A program made the position numbers and the translations under genes. From Planctomycetota bacterium (GTDB lineage Bacteria; Planctomycetota; Phycisphaerae; UBA1845), in contig JBPOIK010000053.1 of NCBI GenBank assembly GCA_052034525.1, positions 22,351-86,350 of the forward strand: 64,000 nucleotides of DNA, given 5' to 3'. Within the stretch, counting starts at the first letter, position 1, and each line of letters starts with the position of its first letter. Positions 9,480-56,696 of the stretch are shown here, one piece after another. The notes under the pieces were generated by a model. That model saw nothing but the letters and a program-made list of their open reading frames with translations. It had not been told where the DNA came from and made no database searches.

Positions 9480-9931
9480 AAATCGCACTGTCCAGCGATC
9501 ATCGCGGATTTCTCGCCAAACAGCATATGGCCGAGGCCCTGCGCCGGGCGGGGCATGACATCCACGACTTCGGCTGTGACACGCCCGAAGTCTGCGACTA
9601 TCCCGACCCCGGCTTGAAGGCGGCGGAGGCGGTCGCCGAGGGGCAGTGCGACCGGGGCATCCTGTTCTGCGGGACCGGCATCGGCATGTCCATCACCGCC
9701 AACAAAGTGCGGGGCGTACGGGCGGCGGCGGTCCACGATGAATTGACGACCACGCTGTCACGCAAACACAACGACGCCAACATCATCTGTCTGGCCGCCG
9801 ACCTGATGGGAGAGGAGCTTATGCGCCGGGTGATCGATGTGTTTCTGAAAACCGATTTTGAGCGCGGCCGCCATCAGCGTCGCGTCGACAAAATCGCCGC
9901 GTACGAAAGCCGCAACGGCCAAGCCGGCTGA
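9476..9931 (+). CDS. rpiB: Ribose-5-phosphate isomerase B.
   Basis: Contains 'MKIALSSDHRGF...ILFCGTGIGMSITANKV'. Its ATG overlaps the upstream stop as ATGA (9476-9479). Confidence 0.9.
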   Translation: MKIALSSDHRGFLAKQHMAEALRRAGHDIHDFGCDTPEVCDYPDPGLKAAEAVAEGQCDRGILFCGTGIGMSITANKVRGVRAAAVHDELTTTLSRKHNDANIICLAADLMGEELMRRVIDVFLKTDFERGRHQRRVDKIAAYESRNGQAG

Positions 9932-46989: not shown

Positions 46990-49632
46990 TTACCGGTCCT
47001 CGCCCTCTCCGGGCTCGATCCACGGCGGCCAGGCGGGGTCGGCGTGCAGCCGCGCCTGAAGAACCTCGGCGAATCGGTAGTGGATGAACACGAACACCCC
47101 CGTGCCTTTGCACGCCTGCAGCGCCAATCGGGCCTCGGACCGTCGCCCCAGGCCAAGCTCGCGCAGGGCGATCAGCAACGTCATCGCGCAGCGCACGCCG
47201 GGCGTCACCCGCGGCAGATCCAGCAGCGCGGTCGCGTGCATCCGACCGCTCAGGTACTCCAGGCACGGGCGGGTGAACGGATCGTCGGTTGGATCGGGTT
47301 GGGCGTCGTCCAGCCGCTGCCGCACCGCGTCCAGCGCCGCCAGCGCGGCGGCGGAGTCCCCCAGCAGCTCGGCCACCCCCGCCGCAATCAGGATGGCGGT
47401 GGTGTTCGTCTGGTGCTGTCGCAGGGTTTCGCGGCAGACCGTGCGGGCCTCATCGAGTCGGCCAACCTCCGCCAGCAGGATGGCCCGCTGCAGGGCCAGC
47501 GGGAAGAAGCTCGGCATGTCCGCACAGGCCGGCGTGATTTCCGCCAGGGCCGTCTGCAGGTCGCCCGCCTCGTGCAGGGCGATGACGCGGTGGTGGACGA
47601 ATCCGGGGTGTTCGGTGCCGGCGGCGGCACGGTCGAGTTCAATGGCGCGGGAGAGGTCTTCCGCGGCGCCCGCGTAATCGCCGACATAACGCCGCAAAAT
47701 GCCTCGACGGCCGTAAACGTCGGCCAGGCGATCGCCGCCGATCTCCAGCGCGCGGTCCAGGTCCTCGCTGCAATGAGCCAGCCATTTGGCCGGATACTCG
47801 CGCAGGTCCGGCTGCGTCGCGGCGTATGCGGCGGCGAACAGGTAGCCGGTGGCCCGCGCGGCATAGGCGCGGGCGGACTTGGGGCGGAAGATCACCCACG
47901 CGTCGAAGTCGTCCAGCATCGGCTGGAGAGCCGCTCGATCGCCCTCGATCAGCAGTCGATGGCGGCGGAAGGTGGCTCGTGCTTCGATGGCCGGCGTGAA
48001 ATCCGGCTGGATATCCAGCGCCCGGTCGTAGCAGGCGACGGGGTCCGCTCCGTCCAGATGCGTGAAAGCGTGGCCGCGGAGCAGCCAGCCCAGAGCGGTC
48101 TGAATGTGAGACTCGTCGTGCCGACGCAGAAAGCGCATGGCGTTCACGTCGTCGGTCATCTCGAAGTAGGCATAGGCCAGGCCCTGGCACGCTTCGACGT
48201 TGTTCGGGCTGCGGCGCAGGGCCTCGGTGAGCGGTTCGATGGCGCGCTGCGGCTGCGCCGTCAGCAGGGGAATCAGCCCGCGATAGAGGTACAGCTCCGC
48301 CGTACGCACGCCCAGGGCGTCGGCACGATCCAGGTGCTTCGCGGCCGCGGACGGGTTGAAGTCCAGGAGCATGGCCGCCAATCCGTCCTGAAGACTGCGC
48401 CGGCCTTCCGCCCGCCGCATCTGTGTGCGAAGCACGATCGTTGTCGTCAGCAGGGCCGCCATTACGAGGACTGCCGCAACGCGAACACGATGCCGCCGCA
48501 CGAAGCGGCCGATCCTCACGTGCAACGGCGTGCGGCGGGCCAGGATCGGTTCGCCGACCAGGAACCGTCGGCAGTCTTCCGCCACGTCGGCCGCCCGGGC
48601 GTAGCGATGGTCGGGATTCTTCCGCATGCACTTGCCGATGATGGTCTCCAGGTCGCGCGGAATGCCCGGTTGGACCTGGCCGAGCGGCTTCGGATCGGAA
48701 AACGCGATGCGGGTCAGAACGGCCTCGCGCGAGTCTCCGTCAAACGCCGGCCGCAGGGCGAGCAGTTCGTACAGGGTGGCCCCGAGCGAGTAGATGTCGG
48801 TGCGCCCGTCCAGTTGGGCGCGGCCGCCGCGGGCCTGCTCCGGCGACATGTATCGCGCGGTGCCGATGACGTCGCCGGAAAGGGTGATGGTCAATCGGGC
48901 GTCCGCCCGGGCCAGGCCGAAGTCGGTGATCCAGACATTGTCGCGTGCGTCGAGCAGGAGGTTTGACGGCTTCACGTCGCGGTGGATGATGCCCTCGCGA
49001 TGGGCGTATTCCAGGGCGTCGGCCACCTGCCGGCCCCAGCGGGCGACGCGGCGGCAATAGTCGTGCCCGGGCCGCGTCCCTTCGGCGGCCAGACGTCGCA
49101 GATGATCCGCGAGCGACCGGCCCTCGATGTACTGCATCACGTAGAACCGGACGCCCTGTTCCTCTCCGACCGCGTGCACGGGCACGATGTTGGTGTGGTG
49201 CAGCCGGCCGGCTGTCTCGGCCTCGCGAAGGAATCGTTCCGGAGCGTTCGGCGAAAGCAGGGCGCCGGGCGGAAGAACCTTCAGCGCCACGCGGCGGTGC
49301 AGCGAGGTCTGCACGGCCTCGTAGACCACGCCCATGCCGCCCCGGCCGATCTCCCGCACGATGCGGTACTCGCCGAGCATGTGGCCGGACTCAAGCTTGC
49401 CCGCGTTCAGCGAACGGCTGGTAGCCTCGACGAACTCGAGGGTTTTGAAGACGCCGCGCAGCGCGTCGGCCAGGGACGGGTGTTCGCGGATGTACCGCTC
49501 CGGGTCCGGGCTGCCGCCCCGGGCCAGCTCCTCCAGGTATTCGTCCAGCACGGTCTCCAACGAGTCGCCGGGAACCGCCGCCGAGGGCGGGTCGGTCTGG
49601 GACGCATTCGGATCGGAAGGATCAGATGGCAT
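46990..49632 (-). CDS. Ser/Thr protein kinase with a C-terminal TPR repeat region.
   Basis: 'GRGGMGVVYEA', 'VALK', 'HRDVKPSNLLL' and 'DFGLAR', then a TM segment and TPR-like repeats. Its start overlaps the ECF sigma stop. Confidence 0.9.
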   Translation of the reverse strand: MPSDPSDPNASQTDPPSAAVPGDSLETVLDEYLEELARGGSPDPERYIREHPSLADALRGVFKTLEFVEATSRSLNAGKLESGHMLGEYRIVREIGRGGMGVVYEAVQTSLHRRVALKVLPPGALLSPNAPERFLREAETAGRLHHTNIVPVHAVGEEQGVRFYVMQYIEGRSLADHLRRLAAEGTRPGHDYCRRVARWGRQVADALEYAHREGIIHRDVKPSNLLLDARDNVWITDFGLARADARLTITLSGDVIGTARYMSPEQARGGRAQLDGRTDIYSLGATLYELLALRPAFDGDSREAVLTRIAFSDPKPLGQVQPGIPRDLETIIGKCMRKNPDHRYARAADVAEDCRRFLVGEPILARRTPLHVRIGRFVRRHRVRVAAVLVMAALLTTTIVLRTQMRRAEGRRSLQDGLAAMLLDFNPSAAAKHLDRADALGVRTAELYLYRGLIPLLTAQPQRAIEPLTEALRRSPNNVEACQGLAYAYFEMTDDVNAMRFLRRHDESHIQTALGWLLRGHAFTHLDGADPVACYDRALDIQPDFTPAIEARATFRRHRLLIEGDRAALQPMLDDFDAWVIFRPKSARAYAARATGYLFAAAYAATQPDLREYPAKWLAHCSEDLDRALEIGGDRLADVYGRRGILRRYVGDYAGAAEDLSRAIELDRAAAGTEHPGFVHHRVIALHEAGDLQTALAEITPACADMPSFFPLALQRAILLAEVGRLDEARTVCRETLRQHQTNTTAILIAAGVAELLGDSAAALAALDAVRQRLDDAQPDPTDDPFTRPCLEYLSGRMHATALLDLPRVTPGVRCAMTLLIALRELGLGRRSEARLALQACKGTGVFVFIHYRFAEVLQARLHADPAWPPWIEPGEGEDR

Positions 49633-50236
49633 CGCCCAGCAGCTCCCGCAGACGGATCAGCGCCCGCACGCACAGACTGCGCACGGCACGCTCCGACCGG
49701 TCCATCTTCGCGGCTGCTTCGGCGACATTCAACTGATGGAAATACCGCAGCGAAATGGCTTCGCGCTGATCGGCACTGAGCCGATCGAGGGCCCGCTTGA
49801 GCAGACGCTCCCGTTCGGCCAGATCCACAACCTGACTGGGGCTGGCGGACGTGGCGGCCAGGGCCTCGAACAGGCGGGTCATGGACGCGTCGCCGCCCAG
49901 ATCGCCGGCACGCACTTCACGCCCGCGTTTGAGCGTCTGAAACGCCCGCCGGTCCGCGTCGCAGATGCGATGAACGGCGATCCGGCGCAACCACGCGAAG
50001 AAACTGTCATGCCCGCGGTCAACGAACTGATCGATGCTGCCCAAAGCATCCAGGTAAACCTGCTGCATGATGTCCTGCGACTCCAGCCGCTGACGGAGTT
50101 TGTCGCCCAGCTCCGCCCGGACAGACTCCAGAAGTCGCCGGCTGTGGATTTCCAGCAGTTGGCTCATGGCGGATTCATCCCGGGCCCGGGCTCGGTCGAT
50201 CAGGCAACGAAGCTCGCATGAATCGTCGGTCGCCAC
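49622..50236 (-). CDS. ECF-type RNA polymerase sigma factor.
   Basis: Sigma-2 and sigma-4 regions ('SLRYFHQLNVAEAAAKMDRSERAVRSL'). It is overlapped by the downstream kinase gene. Confidence 0.9.
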   Translation of the reverse strand: MATDDSCELRCLIDRARARDESAMSQLLEIHSRRLLESVRAELGDKLRQRLESQDIMQQVYLDALGSIDQFVDRGHDSFFAWLRRIAVHRICDADRRAFQTLKRGREVRAGDLGGDASMTRLFEALAATSASPSQVVDLAERERLLKRALDRLSADQREAISLRYFHQLNVAEAAAKMDRSERAVRSLCVRALIRLRELLGDAI

Positions 50237-50405
50237 AATGGCACCTCCTGCTTCTTCAGCGGCTTGCCGGTGACCGCGCTTCGGAGCCGATGGCTTGACC
50301 GACGGCTCGCCGCCGTCGACTGCCCGGGCGGCCTGCCAGACAAAGGGCCGGGTGGGGTGTTCGCCCCGGCCCGGCCCTGGTTTCCGTCTGGTTGGACGCG
50401 GCCCT

Positions 50406-50744
50406 CTACCGTCCGCGCGACCGGTAGCAGTCGCGGCAGTACACCGGCCGACCGCTCGTGGGCTTGAACGGCACAGTCGTCACCGCGCCGCACTCCGCGC
50501 ACGTGACCTCATACGATTCACGCTGCGGACGGCCAAAGCCGCTCCGACCGCCGCCGCCACCACCGCCACCGCCCGAGCGGCCACCGCCGCCACCGCCTTG
50601 CGTTTTGCGCTTCTCGCGGCACTGACGGCACCGCTTCGGCTCATTGGTGAAGCCGCGTTCCGCATACCGCTGCTGGTCTGCCGCCGAGTGAACAAACTCC
50701 GCGCCGCAGTCCGCGCACACAATCACCTTGTCTTCGTACGACAC
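50406..50744 (-). CDS. Double zinc-ribbon protein with a central Gly/Arg-rich (RGG-like) linker.
   Basis: CxxC-x25-CxxC ribbons flank 'GGGGGGRSGGGGGGGGGRSGFGR'. GTG start at 50744 with AAGGGAGG upstream. Confidence 0.7.
   Translation of the reverse strand: MSYEDKVIVCADCGAEFVHSAADQQRYAERGFTNEPKRCRQCREKRKTQGGGGGGRSGGGGGGGGGRSGFGRPQRESYEVTCAECGAVTTVPFKPTSGRPVYCRDCYRSRGR
50543..50598. repeat. Simple-sequence (GCC/ACC)n tract encoding the poly-Gly linker.
   Basis: ccgccgccgccaccaccgccaccgcc...gccaccgccgccaccgcc, seen directly in the sequence. Confidence 0.8.
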
Positions 50745-50933
50745 GCCTGGATCCTCCCTTTGGATGGGCCATACACCGGCCCCGGACCGTGCGGAATGCC
50801 CGATGGGAAAGGAAGCGAGAAGTGGGACGGTCCTGTTTGAGGAGGATCGGCCATGCTCCTGCGATGACCCTTTTTACCCGGGCGACCCGCATATACCTGT
50901 TGGCCCTCAATCCGCTATTACGGGCCCCAGCGC

Positions 50934-50962
50934 AGTATCCACGAGCGGCTTGCCCCGGTCAA
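50934..50962 (-). promoter_or_regulatory. Candidate sigma70-like promoter on the minus strand upstream of the zinc-ribbon gene.
   Basis: -35 TTGACC (complement of 50957-50962), 17-nt spacer, -10 GATACT (complement of 50934-50939). Confidence 0.25.
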
Positions 50963-51272
50963 TAGAGTGCCGAAGCCCCTTCTTCCACCGCGATTTGCAT
51001 ATAATCGATAGCATGTGGCATATTATGAACCGAGATTTCCGCAAATCTCCGGTTCTGAGCGCTCGATCGGGCTTGGCTCATGCGGCATGTCTGGCATAAA
51101 AGCAACCGGGAGCGTGGGCCGGAATAACCTCATGAAACCGCCAGACGATTGTGCGGGATCTCGGCATGAGAAAACGGCTGGTGAGGGATGGAGGACGACG
51201 ACCAAAGCAAGGGCGGGCGATACGGGAACGCGCACCTCGTTCCACCTCCCTCCGCGACCCAACAGCATCTCG

Positions 51273-51605
51273 TCAATCGAGGCGGACCACCACGCGGGAA
51301 ATGAGATTCCGCAATTCGTCCAGATCCCGACGGACGGCTTCCAGATCGCCGGAGACGCTGTCCCGTTCCATCTGGGCGGCCAACTCGGAGAGAATTGCGT
51401 ATCCGTGTCCGCCGCCGCTGCCTTTGAGCCGGTGGGCGGCCGTCTGGAGAGCCTGGATATCCCCGGCGGCCAGAGCTTGCTCCATGGATTCCAGCCGCTG
51501 ACCGAGGCCGGCGACGAACTCATGCACGATCTTCTCAAAGGACGCATCCTCCCGCACCAGGTCGGAGGGAATGGGATCGTCCGGTCTTCTGCTCTCGTCC
51601 GTCAC
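51273..51605 (-). CDS. Stand-alone histidine phosphotransfer (Hpt) domain protein.
   Basis: 'ALQTAAHRLKGSGGGHGYAILSELA' matches the HxxKG phosphotransfer motif. GTG start at 51605 with GGAGG 7 nt upstream; the track start at 51818 is probably too long. Confidence 0.65.
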   Translation of the reverse strand: MTDESRRPDDPIPSDLVREDASFEKIVHEFVAGLGQRLESMEQALAAGDIQALQTAAHRLKGSGGGHGYAILSELAAQMERDSVSGDLEAVRRDLDELRNLISRVVVRLD

Positions 51606-51923: not shown

Positions 51924-52928
51924 ATGACGCTCAGCGGCATCACAATCGAGTCCGGCGACGGCGGCGGAGAGTCGCTGGCGGCGGCGCTACAGGCCGTGTT
52001 GCGCTGGGGCGGATTGGAGCTGGATGAATACACCCTCAGCGCAATTCTGGGACTGTCCTTTCTGGTGGCCGTTCCGCGCGACGGCGAAACACCCGAAGGG
52101 GGTGAGACGCTGGCCCGGGACTGGAATCTGCCGGCGGCGGCCCGACTGGTCGGCCTGGAGCTGCGGCCGCTCCATCCTCCGGAGGCGGCCTGCGGACTGG
52201 CGGACGTGGAGGCGTTTGCCGGGCATTTTCTGGACAGCTACGTGCCGCTGATCCGCGATGCGCTGAACCACGGCCAGCCCGTTCTGGCCTGGCAGGGCTG
52301 GCCGGAGGACTTGGCCCGACAATGGGGAATCATCACCGCGTCGGGCCGCGAGGGCTTGGGCCTGTCGGGCGTGGTGCTGCGTGGCGAAGGAGACGTTCTG
52401 CCGCTGACCGCGCCGGCCGTGCAGTGCTACGTGGTGGAGTCCGCCTCGGGCGTGCGGGAGCCTCCTGTGGTGGAAGCGGTCCGATTCGCCGTCGAGGCGG
52501 CGGAGACGGCGATGTTCGATCGCATCGATCCCGGTTTTGGCGTAGTGTCGGGGCCTGCGGCGTACGAGGCATGGTCGGCGTGGCTGCGGCGGACGGACCC
52601 GCCCATCCGCGATACCCGGGCGGCGGCGATTCTGGTAGCCCGCCTGGCCCGCACGGTGACCAACGCCCGGCGGTTGGCCCAAGGATACCTGGAACTCTGC
52701 CGCGATCGGCTGGATGTCCGGGTCCATCCGGCCCTGGATGAAATCGTGGAGCGGTTACGATCGCCCATCGCGATCCTGTCGGTACACCGGGTGATCACGG
52801 GCAATGAAGAGTTGATTCGCTCGGCGTCCGGTCGTGAAATGCTGGCGGAGGACATTCGGGCCGCCCAACAGGCGGAGCGGGCGGTCGCCGACGCGTTGCG
52901 GCTCTTCCGGGCGGAGTTGGGCTCGTGA
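51924..52928 (+). CDS. Hypothetical protein.
   Basis: 335-aa ORF with native composition. A single conserved-looking Cys lies in 'EAACGLADVEAF'. The family is unknown. Confidence 0.5.
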   Translation: MTLSGITIESGDGGGESLAAALQAVLRWGGLELDEYTLSAILGLSFLVAVPRDGETPEGGETLARDWNLPAAARLVGLELRPLHPPEAACGLADVEAFAGHFLDSYVPLIRDALNHGQPVLAWQGWPEDLARQWGIITASGREGLGLSGVVLRGEGDVLPLTAPAVQCYVVESASGVREPPVVEAVRFAVEAAETAMFDRIDPGFGVVSGPAAYEAWSAWLRRTDPPIRDTRAAAILVARLARTVTNARRLAQGYLELCRDRLDVRVHPALDEIVERLRSPIAILSVHRVITGNEELIRSASGREMLAEDIRAAQQAERAVADALRLFRAELGS

Positions 52929-53147: not shown

Positions 53148-53792
53148 ATGTGGATTCGAGCTGGACGGTACGGGTGGACGGTGGTGCTGGCGGCGGCCGT
53201 CAGCGGGTGTGCGACAACGAACGATCCGTCGCGAGTGGCTCCGAGCCCATTCCCGCGGCAACCGATTACCGAAATGAGCCCACCGCAGGCGCTGGCCGGA
53301 CTGCCGGGCGTGTATCTCTACGTGTACCTGCCGGACAACCTGCTGGCCGTGGGCCTGCGCACAGAGCCGATCGCGGCGGAGGTGCGCACGCGACTGGCGC
53401 AATGGGGCATACGCGAGCTCAGCCACGCCCAGATGCTCGAGCTTGCCGCGATGCCGTCGCTGGACATCAACATCAACGGAGTGGTGGACGCATCCGGAGA
53501 CGGCGTGTTGTTCAACGTGCGGGTCAGCCTTTCGGAAAAAGTGCGGCTGCTGCGCAGCCCGTGGGCCGTCGTGAACACGCGCATGTGGGACGCCGCCACC
53601 GTAGGTCAGGCGCCGTTGAACCGGCTGGAAGAAGTCTATTCCGTCGCCTGCGACACCGTGGACCTCTTCATCGCTGATTACCTTGCCGCCAACGGCCGGC
53701 CGGTCATGGTTGCGGAACGCAACGGGCAGGCCCACCCCGCCCCGACGCTGCCGGCAACGCGGACGTCGCCGGACAAACGCGGCGGATTCTGA
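53148..53792 (+). CDS. Hypothetical lipoprotein.
   Basis: Signal peptide with lipobox 'AAVSGC'. SD GAAGAGGG upstream. Confidence 0.6.
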   Translation: MWIRAGRYGWTVVLAAAVSGCATTNDPSRVAPSPFPRQPITEMSPPQALAGLPGVYLYVYLPDNLLAVGLRTEPIAAEVRTRLAQWGIRELSHAQMLELAAMPSLDININGVVDASGDGVLFNVRVSLSEKVRLLRSPWAVVNTRMWDAATVGQAPLNRLEEVYSVACDTVDLFIADYLAANGRPVMVAERNGQAHPAPTLPATRTSPDKRGGF

Positions 53793-54182: not shown

Positions 54183-55187
54183 TTACGACGCGACCGTCGC
54201 CGCCGCCGTCACGATCGTCTTGATCTTCTGCATCGCGGTGATGATGCTCTCCGGCGAGCAGCACGTTACCGGCCGGTCTTTGCAAGCCTCTTGACAGGCT
54301 TCCGAGCACGCGCATTCGGACTTCGCCGACCCGCACTTCGCTTGACCGGCACAGCCCGGCTTGCCCTCGGCGGATGCCGTCTGGGCCTTCAGGTTCTCGG
54401 AACCGCAGCCACACTTGCCTTCACACTTGCCGGCGCACTTGCCTTCACACTTGCCATCGCACTTGCCGGCGCACTTGCCTTCACACGGTCCGGAGCAACC
54501 GGCTTTGCCTTCATGCGATGCCGTCTTGGCCCGGCCAGCGCAATCGGACGCACAACCGGCCTTGCCTTCCGCCGACGCGGTCTGGGCCTTGCCGCATGTG
54601 GACGCGCAGTTGCCGTCGGCCTTCTTGGCCGTGCACGACGCCGAGCAGCCCGCCTGGCCGGTCGCCTTGCCTTCAGCCAGCGCTACCAGCGCATCCGAAA
54701 CCACCTGAGCGGCCTTGTCCGCCTCCTCCTGTGTTTCGAACGTGTAGCCGGCCACGGAGTACTTCAACGCCGCGCCATTGGCCGCCCGGGCCGCCTCGCC
54801 GAAGCTGGCATAGCAATTCTCACCCGCCACATAACGGACGCTTGCCAGCCGGGCCGCCGTGCTCTCCAACTGCTCCACCACGCGGGCGATTGCAGCGTCC
54901 TCGGTCCCGAAGGTCTCCTCGCCGACCGCATAGACGATCGGACTGCCCGTCTCCTGTGACTTCTTCGTCGCCTGCACCCTGCAACGGGTCGTGAAATCGC
55001 CGACGTGGTACGTCAGTCGGGGCAGTTCCTTGACCAGCTTGGTCAAAGCAGCCGGACAGCCGCTGCCATCACAGCCTTGCTTCGTCCCACACGCCGCTTT
55101 CGATCCGCAGTTCGGTCCGGCCTGTACCGCCGACGCCGCAACCGTAAACACCAGCGCCAGCCCAAAAACAAACAAACCCTTTCTCAT
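54183..55187 (-). CDS. Secreted cysteine-rich repeat protein, metallothionein-like.
   Basis: Signal peptide 'VFGLALVFTVAASAVQA'. About 40 Cys, including 'GKCAGKCDGKCEGKCAGKCEGKCGCG' and three spaced 'TASAEGKAGC' repeats. Confidence 0.7.
   Translation of the reverse strand: MRKGLFVFGLALVFTVAASAVQAGPNCGSKAACGTKQGCDGSGCPAALTKLVKELPRLTYHVGDFTTRCRVQATKKSQETGSPIVYAVGEETFGTEDAAIARVVEQLESTAARLASVRYVAGENCYASFGEAARAANGAALKYSVAGYTFETQEEADKAAQVVSDALVALAEGKATGQAGCSASCTAKKADGNCASTCGKAQTASAEGKAGCASDCAGRAKTASHEGKAGCSGPCEGKCAGKCDGKCEGKCAGKCEGKCGCGSENLKAQTASAEGKPGCAGQAKCGSAKSECACSEACQEACKDRPVTCCSPESIITAMQKIKTIVTAAATVAS
54403..54490. repeat. In-frame tandem repeat of about 12 nt (CACTTGCCnnnn)n inside the Cys-rich gene.
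   Basis: cacttgccttcacacttgccggcgcacttgccttcacacttgccatcgcacttgccggcgcacttgcc, which encodes the (GKCx)n repeat. Confidence 0.7.
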
Positions 55188-55487: not shown

Positions 55488-56696
55488 CTACTCGTTCGAG
55501 CCGTGAGGGCTCGAATCCTCCTCCAGGCCCAGCGGATCAAATCCCTGGATCGTAAACGGAGAGGATCGCCAGATTTCGCCGTCGAAATACGGTTCGGTAA
55601 TCGCCTCGCGAAGAGCCGATTCGTCCGTTCGCGCCGGATCGTAGGTGATCCGCACCGGCACGTACCCCGGCCCCGGCCAGGCCTCCACGGAGATGTACCC
55701 GGGAACCTCGTACTCATCATCGCGCTCGACGAAGTACATGAACAGCGATGCCCGGCCACGACACGTCAGGTCGTTCACCCTCAATTCCAGGGTTGCGGTT
55801 TGGGCCGGTTCCTCGCCGCGACCGGCCGCGATCGCCCGGTACGACGGCAGTGGAAAGGCGTACGCGGCGCCGACCGCCGCGGCCAGCGACAGTAGCAGGA
55901 TGCCGATAAGAGCCGCCTGCGGCCACGACCGACCGAGAAACCGGGGAGGCCCCCATGTCAGGGCCCCTTCCTTCTCCCGCGGACAGACCTCGAGGCAGTT
56001 CAGACACGACAGGCACCGGGCGGCCGTCACCTGCTGGACCTTGTCCACTTTGATGCCCGTCGGACACACCTTGGCGCACAACCCGCAATCGATGCAGGCG
56101 TCCGGGTGCCGCCGCACGCGCGTCAGCCCGAGCCGGGAAAGCGGGTGCATTACCGCGGCCATGGGACAGAACCAGCGGCAGAACGGCATCACGATGAACA
56201 GCGATGCAAGCACGATCGCGCCGGCGACGATGTATGCCCAGTATGTGATGTCTTCACCGTGCCGACTGATCAGCGCGTAGCAGGGATCCGCCCGGCGGAA
56301 CTCCAGCTCCGCCGCCGACCACGTGAAATAGAGGATGATTCCCAGCACAACGTATTTCAACACGGCCAGTCCGCGATCCAGCGTATACGGCACGCGAACC
56401 GGACGGATGCCGATTCGCTTCATCCCGGCCTGCAACCATTCCGACATCGCGCCGATGGGGCAGGCGTACCCGCAGAACGCCCGTCGCAACAGGAACGCCG
56501 TCAGCAGCACCGCGCCCAGCACGTAGAGGTTCGACACCCCCAGCGAGCAGAGCATATTCCCTTCACTGATGTAGTTGTAGATCGCCTCCACGCCGCCGAA
56601 CGGGCAGTATGCCTCCGCGTTGCCCTTGACCACAAAGACACCGATCAAGGTCAACGCCACGAAGGCAAACTGCACCAAGCGCCTGGTCCGTTTCAT
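55488..56696 (-). CDS. Polyferredoxin-type membrane protein (NapH/MauN/CcoG-like) with a C-terminal soluble domain.
   Basis: Two membrane-embedded CxxxCP motifs (AYCPFGG and YACPIGA). Two 4Fe-4S ferredoxin motifs (CIDCGLCAKVCP and CLSCLNCLEVCP). The C-terminal ~100 aa carry 'DLTCRGRA'. Confidence 0.8.
   Translation of the reverse strand: MKRTRRLVQFAFVALTLIGVFVVKGNAEAYCPFGGVEAIYNYISEGNMLCSLGVSNLYVLGAVLLTAFLLRRAFCGYACPIGAMSEWLQAGMKRIGIRPVRVPYTLDRGLAVLKYVVLGIILYFTWSAAELEFRRADPCYALISRHGEDITYWAYIVAGAIVLASLFIVMPFCRWFCPMAAVMHPLSRLGLTRVRRHPDACIDCGLCAKVCPTGIKVDKVQQVTAARCLSCLNCLEVCPREKEGALTWGPPRFLGRSWPQAALIGILLLSLAAAVGAAYAFPLPSYRAIAAGRGEEPAQTATLELRVNDLTCRGRASLFMYFVERDDEYEVPGYISVEAWPGPGYVPVRITYDPARTDESALREAITEPYFDGEIWRSSPFTIQGFDPLGLEEDSSPHGSNE

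Follow-up and report, generated by a model that had tools for sequence, protein, structure and literature searches.

Gene pairs made of an extracytoplasmic function (ECF) sigma factor and a Ser/Thr kinase, encoded without an anti-sigma factor, define groups ECF43, ECF59-62, ECF217 and ECF283 (PMC7826278, PMC8999054). Direct phosphorylation was demonstrated for EcfP and EcfK (PMC8999054, PMC13147305), two members of ECF43, a group whose defining traits are a region 2.2 that has lost the acidic DAED residues and a phospho-Thr (PMC13147305, PMC8999054). A pair of this kind was analysed here in a 64-kb window (the whole stretch of DNA under study, about 65% GC) of a planctomycete contig from a sewage metagenome. 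Two further genes are located on the same (minus) strand, the four together spanning 4.6 kb: one encodes a 112-aa Gly/Arg protein with two zinc ribbons, the other a 110-aa stand-alone histidine-containing phosphotransfer (Hpt) protein. The original prediction had joined the four genes into one signalling unit. From comparison with related genomes, the sigma-kinase pair, the zinc-ribbon gene and the Hpt gene very probably form three independent minus-strand transcription units, with a fourth, divergent unit next to them, and their proximity reflects a lineage-specific gene order. The separation into units rests on predicted promoters, a predicted hairpin and synteny. The genes themselves are as they had been described: all four open reading frames were recovered on the minus strand with domain matches far above chance, and the closest relatives of the sigma factor, Hpt and zinc-ribbon proteins belong to Planctomycetota.

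The kinase (46990-49632, minus strand, 880 aa) matched the Pfam family Pkinase (7e-44) and several tetratricopeptide repeat (TPR) families. All Hanks motifs (GRGGMGVVY, VALKVL, HRDVKPSN, DFG and SPE) were present in the translation, and the Hanks domain covers residues 89-345. Hydropathy analysis gave one hydrophobic segment (residues ~383-403), corresponding to a single transmembrane helix, with the kinase domain on its cytoplasmic side and a C-terminal, TPR-rich domain of ~475 aa on the outer, probably periplasmic side. Single-pass kinases of this architecture are reported to be common in Planctomycetota (PMC11032199). The sigma gene (49622-50236, minus strand, 204 aa) starts with a GTG preceded by an AGGAGG Shine-Dalgarno sequence. 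Its stop codon overlaps the ATG of the kinase gene, as had been claimed; the overlap measures 11 nt and is identical in loci L014, L015 and L016. The order sigma gene then kinase gene was found in the window and in six lineages (L014-L019). Orthologues of the sigma gene are those of L014-L018, with the kinase gene next in each where the contig sequence is long enough to tell; the sigma genes of L019-L022 are distant paralogues. No anti-sigma domain was found among the domain matches of the neighbouring genes in the window. The pair thus combines a conserved Hanks kinase neighbour with the lack of a co-encoded anti-sigma factor, as in kinase-associated ECF groups, and the proposal that the kinase stands in place of an anti-sigma factor is supported, this architecture being the one documented for the groups listed above (PMC7826278, PMC8999054). 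Judged by gene order, this pair is the only conserved unit of the locus, and its kind is already known in Planctomycetes. Residues 1-85 of the kinase (49378-49632, minus strand) form an N-terminal extension of ~85 aa (…LETVLDEYLEELARGGSPDPERYIREHPSLADALRGVFKTLEFVE…) with no family match, which might be a docking site for the sigma factor.

The sigma protein matched Sigma70_ECF (1e-11) and the r2 and r4_2 domains in Pfam, and scored 72.8 bits with TIGR02937 (cut-off 42.9). It could be aligned to the structures of sigma-E, SigH and SigW and, with ~200 aa and domains sigma2 and sigma4 only, it has the composition of an ECF (group IV) factor. Its region 2.2 reads E52-S53-Q54-D55-I-M-Q-Q (ESQD-IMQQ), in which ESQD aligns with DVPD (DVPD-VVQE) of Escherichia coli sigma-E (structure 1or7). 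The systems EcfP/PknT of Vibrio parahaemolyticus and EcfK/PknS of Xanthomonas citri resemble the pair of the window: the ECF gene adjoins that of a membrane-spanning Hanks kinase whose sensor domain is extracytoplasmic, no anti-sigma factor is encoded, and activation of the sigma factor by phosphorylation is the likely logic (PMC8999054, PMC13147305). They differ in region 2.2, since ECF43 proteins are devoid of the acidic DAED and carry the phospho-Thr in STTA or QTTA, whereas ESQD has two acidic residues and a Ser. Neither the loss of the acidic motif nor the QTTA/STTA phospho-Thr was found in region 2.2 of the window protein; because E52 and D55 are kept and the hydroxylated residue is Ser, not Thr, the protein does not carry an ECF43-type switch. 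Groups ECF59, ECF61, ECF62 and ECF217 are more similar, being of planctomycete origin, adjacent to kinases and provided with a DAED-like motif with Ser/Thr in or near it (PMC7826278, PMC8999054); none of them has been characterised experimentally. The sequence of the window sigma factor fits the description of planctomycete groups that keep an acidic region 2.2 motif with a nearby Ser/Thr, and it is near these four groups by description only: its best NCBIfam model is TIGR02984 (planctomycete subfamily 1), with 140.9 bits under a cut-off of 183.75. S118 is invariant in the alignment of sigma orthologues, and the dipeptide P133-S134 is located in the linker between sigma2 and sigma4. By analogy with EcfK, S53 in ESQD and the Ser/Thr cluster of the linker (S118, T130-S134) may be regarded as candidate phosphorylation sites.

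A motif of the form CGA(A/G)GCGC-N13-14-CGCT was found 21-22 nt 5′ of the sigma start in the five orthologous lineages L014-L018. In the window it reads CGAAGCGC-N14-CGCT (50258-50283, minus strand). Its core positions are invariant in the alignment of six sigma loci, three of which have different upstream genes, and it was not found at the distant paralogues L019-L022. The window contains two matches to the motif versus 0.34 expected by chance, the second one being intragenic. This conserved element is probably the sigma operon's own ECF-type promoter, perhaps autoregulated, since autoregulation is usual among ECF sigma factors. A signal received at the TPR domain would activate the kinase, the activated kinase would phosphorylate the sigma factor, and the phosphorylated sigma factor would bind RNA polymerase productively; transcription would then start from CGAAGCGC-N14-CGCT, just 5′ of the sigma gene itself. 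The gene pairing, the 11-nt overlap, the intact kinase motifs, the topology given by hydropathy and the conserved motif are the observations on which this scheme is built; we infer from them the phosphorylation, its site and the autoregulation.

The zinc-ribbon gene is located at 50406-50744 (minus strand). Its product matched zf_Tbcl (PF13451; 1.6e-19, 70.0 bits for a cut-off of 24), zf_Tbcl_2 (PF23477; 1.3e-18, 66.8 bits for a cut-off of 27) and TIGR04272 (CxxC-x17-CxxC; 66.5 bits for a cut-off of 36). All eight cysteines are present, as C10xxC13...C39xxC42 and C82xxC85-x17-C103xxC106, on both sides of the Gly/Arg linker. The CxxC-x17-CxxC domain type binds zinc in small proteins of Methanosarcina (PMC12704099). 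Those of Methanosarcina mazei, for which zinc binding was shown, are of the TIGR04272 type like the C-terminal domain of the window protein (PMC12704099); compared with them, the window protein has in addition an N-terminal zf_Tbcl domain, the Gly/Arg linker and a conserved structured leader in its mRNA. The search gave over 1100 homologues, many sharing 70-78% identity, and the family is also present in Acidobacteriota, Chloroflexi and Archaea; this spread comes from a contig scan dominated by the poly-Gly pattern, and the four loci from other phyla were used only to assess it. The search of PDB sequences with the protein gave only matches to artificial Gly-Ser linkers. The protein is most likely an abundant nucleic-acid-binding protein, probably binding RNA.

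The gap between the zinc-ribbon and sigma genes is 169 bp. The zinc-ribbon gene lies directly upstream of the sigma gene, as had been stated of both added genes; this does not hold for the Hpt gene (51273-51605, minus strand), which is 528 bp away from the zinc-ribbon gene. A terminator had been suspected in the 169-bp gap, and a predicted terminator-like hairpin with a short U-tract was indeed found there (50338-50377, minus strand), 3′ of the zinc-ribbon stop codon. It has the structure GGGCCGGGCCGGGG-CGAACA-CCCCACCCGGCCC followed by UUUGUCU. The fold of the whole gap has an energy of −92.1 kcal/mol (z = −4.3), and a shorter piece gave z = −3.3. The hairpin is kept in the alignment with L014 and L015, and comparable hairpins were found 3′ of the zinc-ribbon gene in L023, L025, L026 and L031, the last two with clear U-tracts. 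The consensus terminator scan did not call the window hairpin because its stem is bulged. At the other end of the gene, the consensus scan gave a sigma-70-type promoter, TTGACC-17 nt-GATACT (50934-50962, minus strand). TTGACC and ATACT are invariant in six zinc-ribbon loci, three of them with unrelated neighbours, and a similar site was found at the Phycisphaerae zinc-ribbon locus L028. With its near-consensus promoter, its structured leader (50745-50933, minus strand, core 50784-50890) and its terminator-like hairpin, the zinc-ribbon gene looks like an autonomous, self-contained unit.

Gene order was compared at five Hpt loci, six zinc-ribbon contexts and six sigma loci. None of the five Hpt orthologues (47-69% identity, on long contigs) is located beside an ECF/kinase pair or a zinc-ribbon gene; the nearest case is L011, with an unrelated ECF sigma gene ~9 kb from the Hpt gene. 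Zinc-ribbon homologues (61-76% identity) occupy six further, unrelated neighbourhoods, where none of them adjoins a sigma, kinase or Hpt gene. Outside the window, a zinc-ribbon gene ahead of the sigma gene was found only in L014 and L015 (92% sigma identity). In L016 (78% sigma identity) the sigma gene is preceded by the end of another coding sequence, and in L017 (69%) by the gene of an FGE-sulfatase-like protein. In both nearest relatives, a gene for a 432-aa TrkA_N-like channel lies between the Hpt and zinc-ribbon genes (L015, 3854-5152; L014, 2-889). This channel gene is not in the window, where the 306 bp found in its place (50967-51272) have no homology to L014 or L015, which indicates a recent insertion or deletion; homology to the two loci sets in at 50966, a point that coincides with the −35 box of the zinc-ribbon promoter. 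A four-gene cluster kept adjacent across related genomes was not observed. The original prediction had itself named scattering of the orthologues as what would refute it, and in related genomes the Hpt and zinc-ribbon genes were found scattered away from ECF/kinase pairs. The extension of the sigma/kinase unit by these two genes is therefore not supported: orthologues of each occur elsewhere, the channel gene intervenes, and sigma genes at 69-78% identity have other genes upstream.

A four-gene signalling module, in which the orphan Hpt protein would link a His-Asp phosphorelay to the ECF/kinase pair and the zinc-ribbon protein would be a further component, would be a new wiring principle if true. 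The location of the genes on one strand within 4.6 kb is in its favour, as are the L015 gene order, identical save for the channel gene, and the lack of a histidine kinase or receiver in the window, which leaves the Hpt protein without an obvious local partner. However, Hpt orthologues are never beside ECF/kinase or zinc-ribbon genes in five other lineages, the channel gene intervenes in the nearest relatives, and sigma/kinase orthologues at 69-78% identity have neither gene upstream. The module is also at odds with the separate conserved promoter in the 528-bp gap between the Hpt and zinc-ribbon genes, and with the hairpin and separate sigma promoter motif in the gap before the sigma gene. 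We consider it very improbable; the cross-talk between His-Asp and Ser/Thr signalling found no support, and the comparative evidence points to a coincidence of gene order. Another explanation keeps the proteins functionally unlinked and assumes that the zinc-ribbon terminator is leaky, so that the strong zinc-ribbon promoter sets basal expression of the sigma/kinase genes in this clade. In its favour, adjacency and hairpin are kept in three close relatives, the promoter is near consensus, and the short, interrupted U-tract can enter an extended stem. Against it, the predicted stability of the hairpin is very high (z = −3.3 to −4.3) and the sigma gene keeps its own upstream motif whatever gene precedes it, which makes such read-through quite unlikely as the explanation of the arrangement.

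Zinc binding is common among anti-sigma factors, and in three genomes (the window, L014 and L015) the zinc-ribbon gene is located directly 5′ of the sigma gene. The zinc-ribbon protein could on these grounds regulate the neighbouring sigma factor directly in this clade, as a small zinc-binding anti-sigma factor or otherwise. We hold this to be extremely improbable. The motif HxxxCxxC of zinc-binding anti-sigma (ZAS) factors is not present in the protein, whose domains belong to zf_Tbcl and zf_Tbcl_2; the family, a very large one, is conserved at 70-78% across lineages, occurs in unrelated contexts without sigma genes and reaches Acidobacteriota, Chloroflexi and Archaea; the gene has its own promoter, leader and hairpin; and the sigma orthologues of L016 and L017 have no zinc-ribbon gene. 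A role as a ZAS anti-sigma factor was rejected for want of the motif and of co-conservation with the sigma gene.

Several points weigh against the reading of the locus as independent transcription units around a kinase-controlled sigma factor. The comparative sample is small. The zinc-ribbon and sigma genes are neighbours in all three of the closest genomes (the window, L014 and L015), and a clade-specific link between the two is possible. The U-tract of the hairpin (UUUGUCU) is short and interrupted, and the predicted fold allows it to pair with upstream bases, so that some of the transcription started at the strong zinc-ribbon promoter may continue into the sigma operon. The pairing of the Hpt gene with the divergent gene described below is missing from the most divergent member on each side (L012 and L027). 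Finally, the two acidic residues E52 and D55 are kept in region 2.2, and the ECF43 switch, in which the sigma factor is inactive until phosphorylated, is therefore not simply transferable to this protein; the kinase target is only putative.

The leader of the zinc-ribbon gene, ~185 nt long, is conserved in alignments of four independent planctomycete lineages. Leader and promoter were compared at six loci: the window (50745-50962, minus strand), L014 (1048-1229), L015 (5310-5487), L023 (4812-5000), L025 (4808-5000) and L026 (4803-5000). The consensus fold consists of a closing stem and two internal hairpins; pairing was found in 94% of cells, versus 35-47% when the partners were slid, and three pairs are changed on both sides, mostly in L023. 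A covariance model (R1) matched only the leader position in the six loci. No copy of R1 was found in other phyla, at the Phycisphaerae locus L028 or at L031; the leader is therefore restricted to a clade. No Rfam family reached its gathering score anywhere in the window, the search of the leader at E<=5 was equally negative, and the scan of viral contigs for a leader word had no match. A small open reading frame in the leader was considered and rejected: close relatives differ by indels of 1 and 4 nt, which argues against a coding role. The leader block GAUCCUCC is complementary to the Shine-Dalgarno region GGAGGAUC, which suggests translational control; the leader would control translation of the zinc-ribbon protein by alternative pairing of the CCUCC block with the Shine-Dalgarno sequence. 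With few sequences compared, these data are suggestive of a candidate structured cis-regulatory RNA.

Stand-alone Hpt proteins include HptB of Pseudomonas aeruginosa, LuxU of Vibrio and Ypd1 of yeast. The Hpt protein of the window resembles them in being a single domain of ~110 aa, with its His in HxxKG, encoded apart from kinases. It differs by the end motifs of its subfamily, DPIPSDLV and SRVVVRLD, and by a divergent partner with the fold of BtrH in several lineages. It matched Pfam Hpt (PF01627; 2e-14, 53.9 bits for a cut-off of 24.6), and its gene starts with a GTG behind a GGAGGA Shine-Dalgarno sequence. The phospho-accepting His is kept in AHRLKGSGGGHGY / HRLKGSGGGHGY, and the His of H(R/Q)LKG is invariant in 20 sequences; 19 homologues were found, nearly all single-domain proteins of 110-138 aa. 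Neither a receiver domain (phmmer with CheY and Spo0F) nor an H-box (pattern search) was detected when the 64-kb window was translated in all six frames. The Hpt protein is therefore an orphan here, in agreement with the claim that no histidine kinase or receiver gene adjoins it. Neither were histidine kinase or receiver genes present in the neighbour tables of the five orthologous Hpt loci. The Hpt protein presumably serves as a phosphate carrier between hybrid kinases and receivers whose genes lie elsewhere in the genome.

The divergent gene next to the Hpt gene (51924-52928, plus strand), beyond the coordinates originally considered, encodes a 334-aa protein. A divergent homologue is located beside the Hpt gene in four of the five orthologous loci and in L015 (L006, 8799-10342; L008, 8832-10333; L010, 8830-10342; L011, 8786-10333; L015, 2111-3799), so that the pair is kept in five of the seven lineages sampled. 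On this conserved arrangement, the Hpt gene belongs with the divergent 334-aa gene and not with the sigma/kinase pair. The alignment of the intergenic regions of the pair revealed no shared operator. At L008 (~9861-9880), L010 (~9832-9851) and L011 (~9788-9807), the sequence TACATTACCGGGC-ATG is conserved before the start of the 334-aa gene; TACATTACCGGGC resembles a −10 box 7 nt before the ATG, which would suggest a leaderless mRNA. A 214-aa protein encoded 3′ of the 334-aa gene (53148-53792, plus strand) has no family match; it is conserved in L015 (73% identity) and L006 (52%) and was not found in the more distant Hpt loci.

The 334-aa family comprises 451 cluster representatives of uniform length. 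It has no Pfam match, and Pfam at E<=10 and the PDB profile search gave noise only. The predicted structure has two parts, a papain-like N-domain and a helical C-domain, as in BtrH, CtaG and CcbD. BtrH, CtaG, CcbD and AziU3 are papain-like transacylases acting on carrier-protein-bound substrates (PMC12865890; PDB 9qvj, 7yn1, 7wuw). In contrast to these enzymes, to which it has no detectable sequence similarity, the 334-aa family has Ser/Thr in place of Cys and no conserved His where CtaG has H128, and its gene lies outside any biosynthetic cluster, beside an Hpt gene. Position 17, at the start of helix 1, is Ser in the window protein and Ser/Thr in 131 of 150 sequences, and Cys was never among the top residues. 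The near-invariant polar residues are D66, R81, H84, H101, S105, Y106, Q167 and E172. A Cys-His-Asp triad such as that of CtaG (C11/H128/D144) was not found in the family, the conserved H84 and H101 being outside the expected strand; equivalence was judged by residue order and secondary structure. A BtrH_N-like N-terminal motif did not match CtaG, CcbD or AziU3 in PDB, and the equivalence of the nucleophile at the residue level is for this reason only putative. Because CtaG and CcbD dock small helical carrier proteins, the 334-aa protein might by analogy dock the four-helix Hpt protein and modify or dephosphorylate it. A literature search found no paper joining the BtrH fold with Hpt proteins, and a functional link between the two proteins is speculation. 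That the Hpt and 334-aa proteins form an undescribed two-gene system, or that the ~185-nt leader is a new cis-regulatory RNA for an abundant RNA-binding zinc protein, or both, is doubtful at this stage and is put forward tentatively.

Further along the window, another 334-aa protein (54183-55187, minus strand) has an N-terminal signal-like segment followed by a long Cys/Gly/Lys-rich repeat (…CEGKCAGKCDGKCEGKCAGKCEGKCGCG…). It has no Pfam or NCBIfam match and adjoins a NapH/NosR-like membrane polyferredoxin (55488-56696, minus strand). It could be a metal- or redox-related secreted protein.

The sigma/kinase pair is thus one more planctomycete ECF/kinase pair, from the little-studied groups that keep an acidic region 2.2. 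The motif before the sigma start could serve to look for the regulon of this ECF group, of which it is a candidate target promoter. Together with the candidate Ser sites, it makes the pair a defined test case for the question of whether these groups rely on a phosphorylation mechanism unlike that of ECF43. The leader RNA and the pair of Hpt and BtrH-fold proteins are starting points for two families without assigned function.

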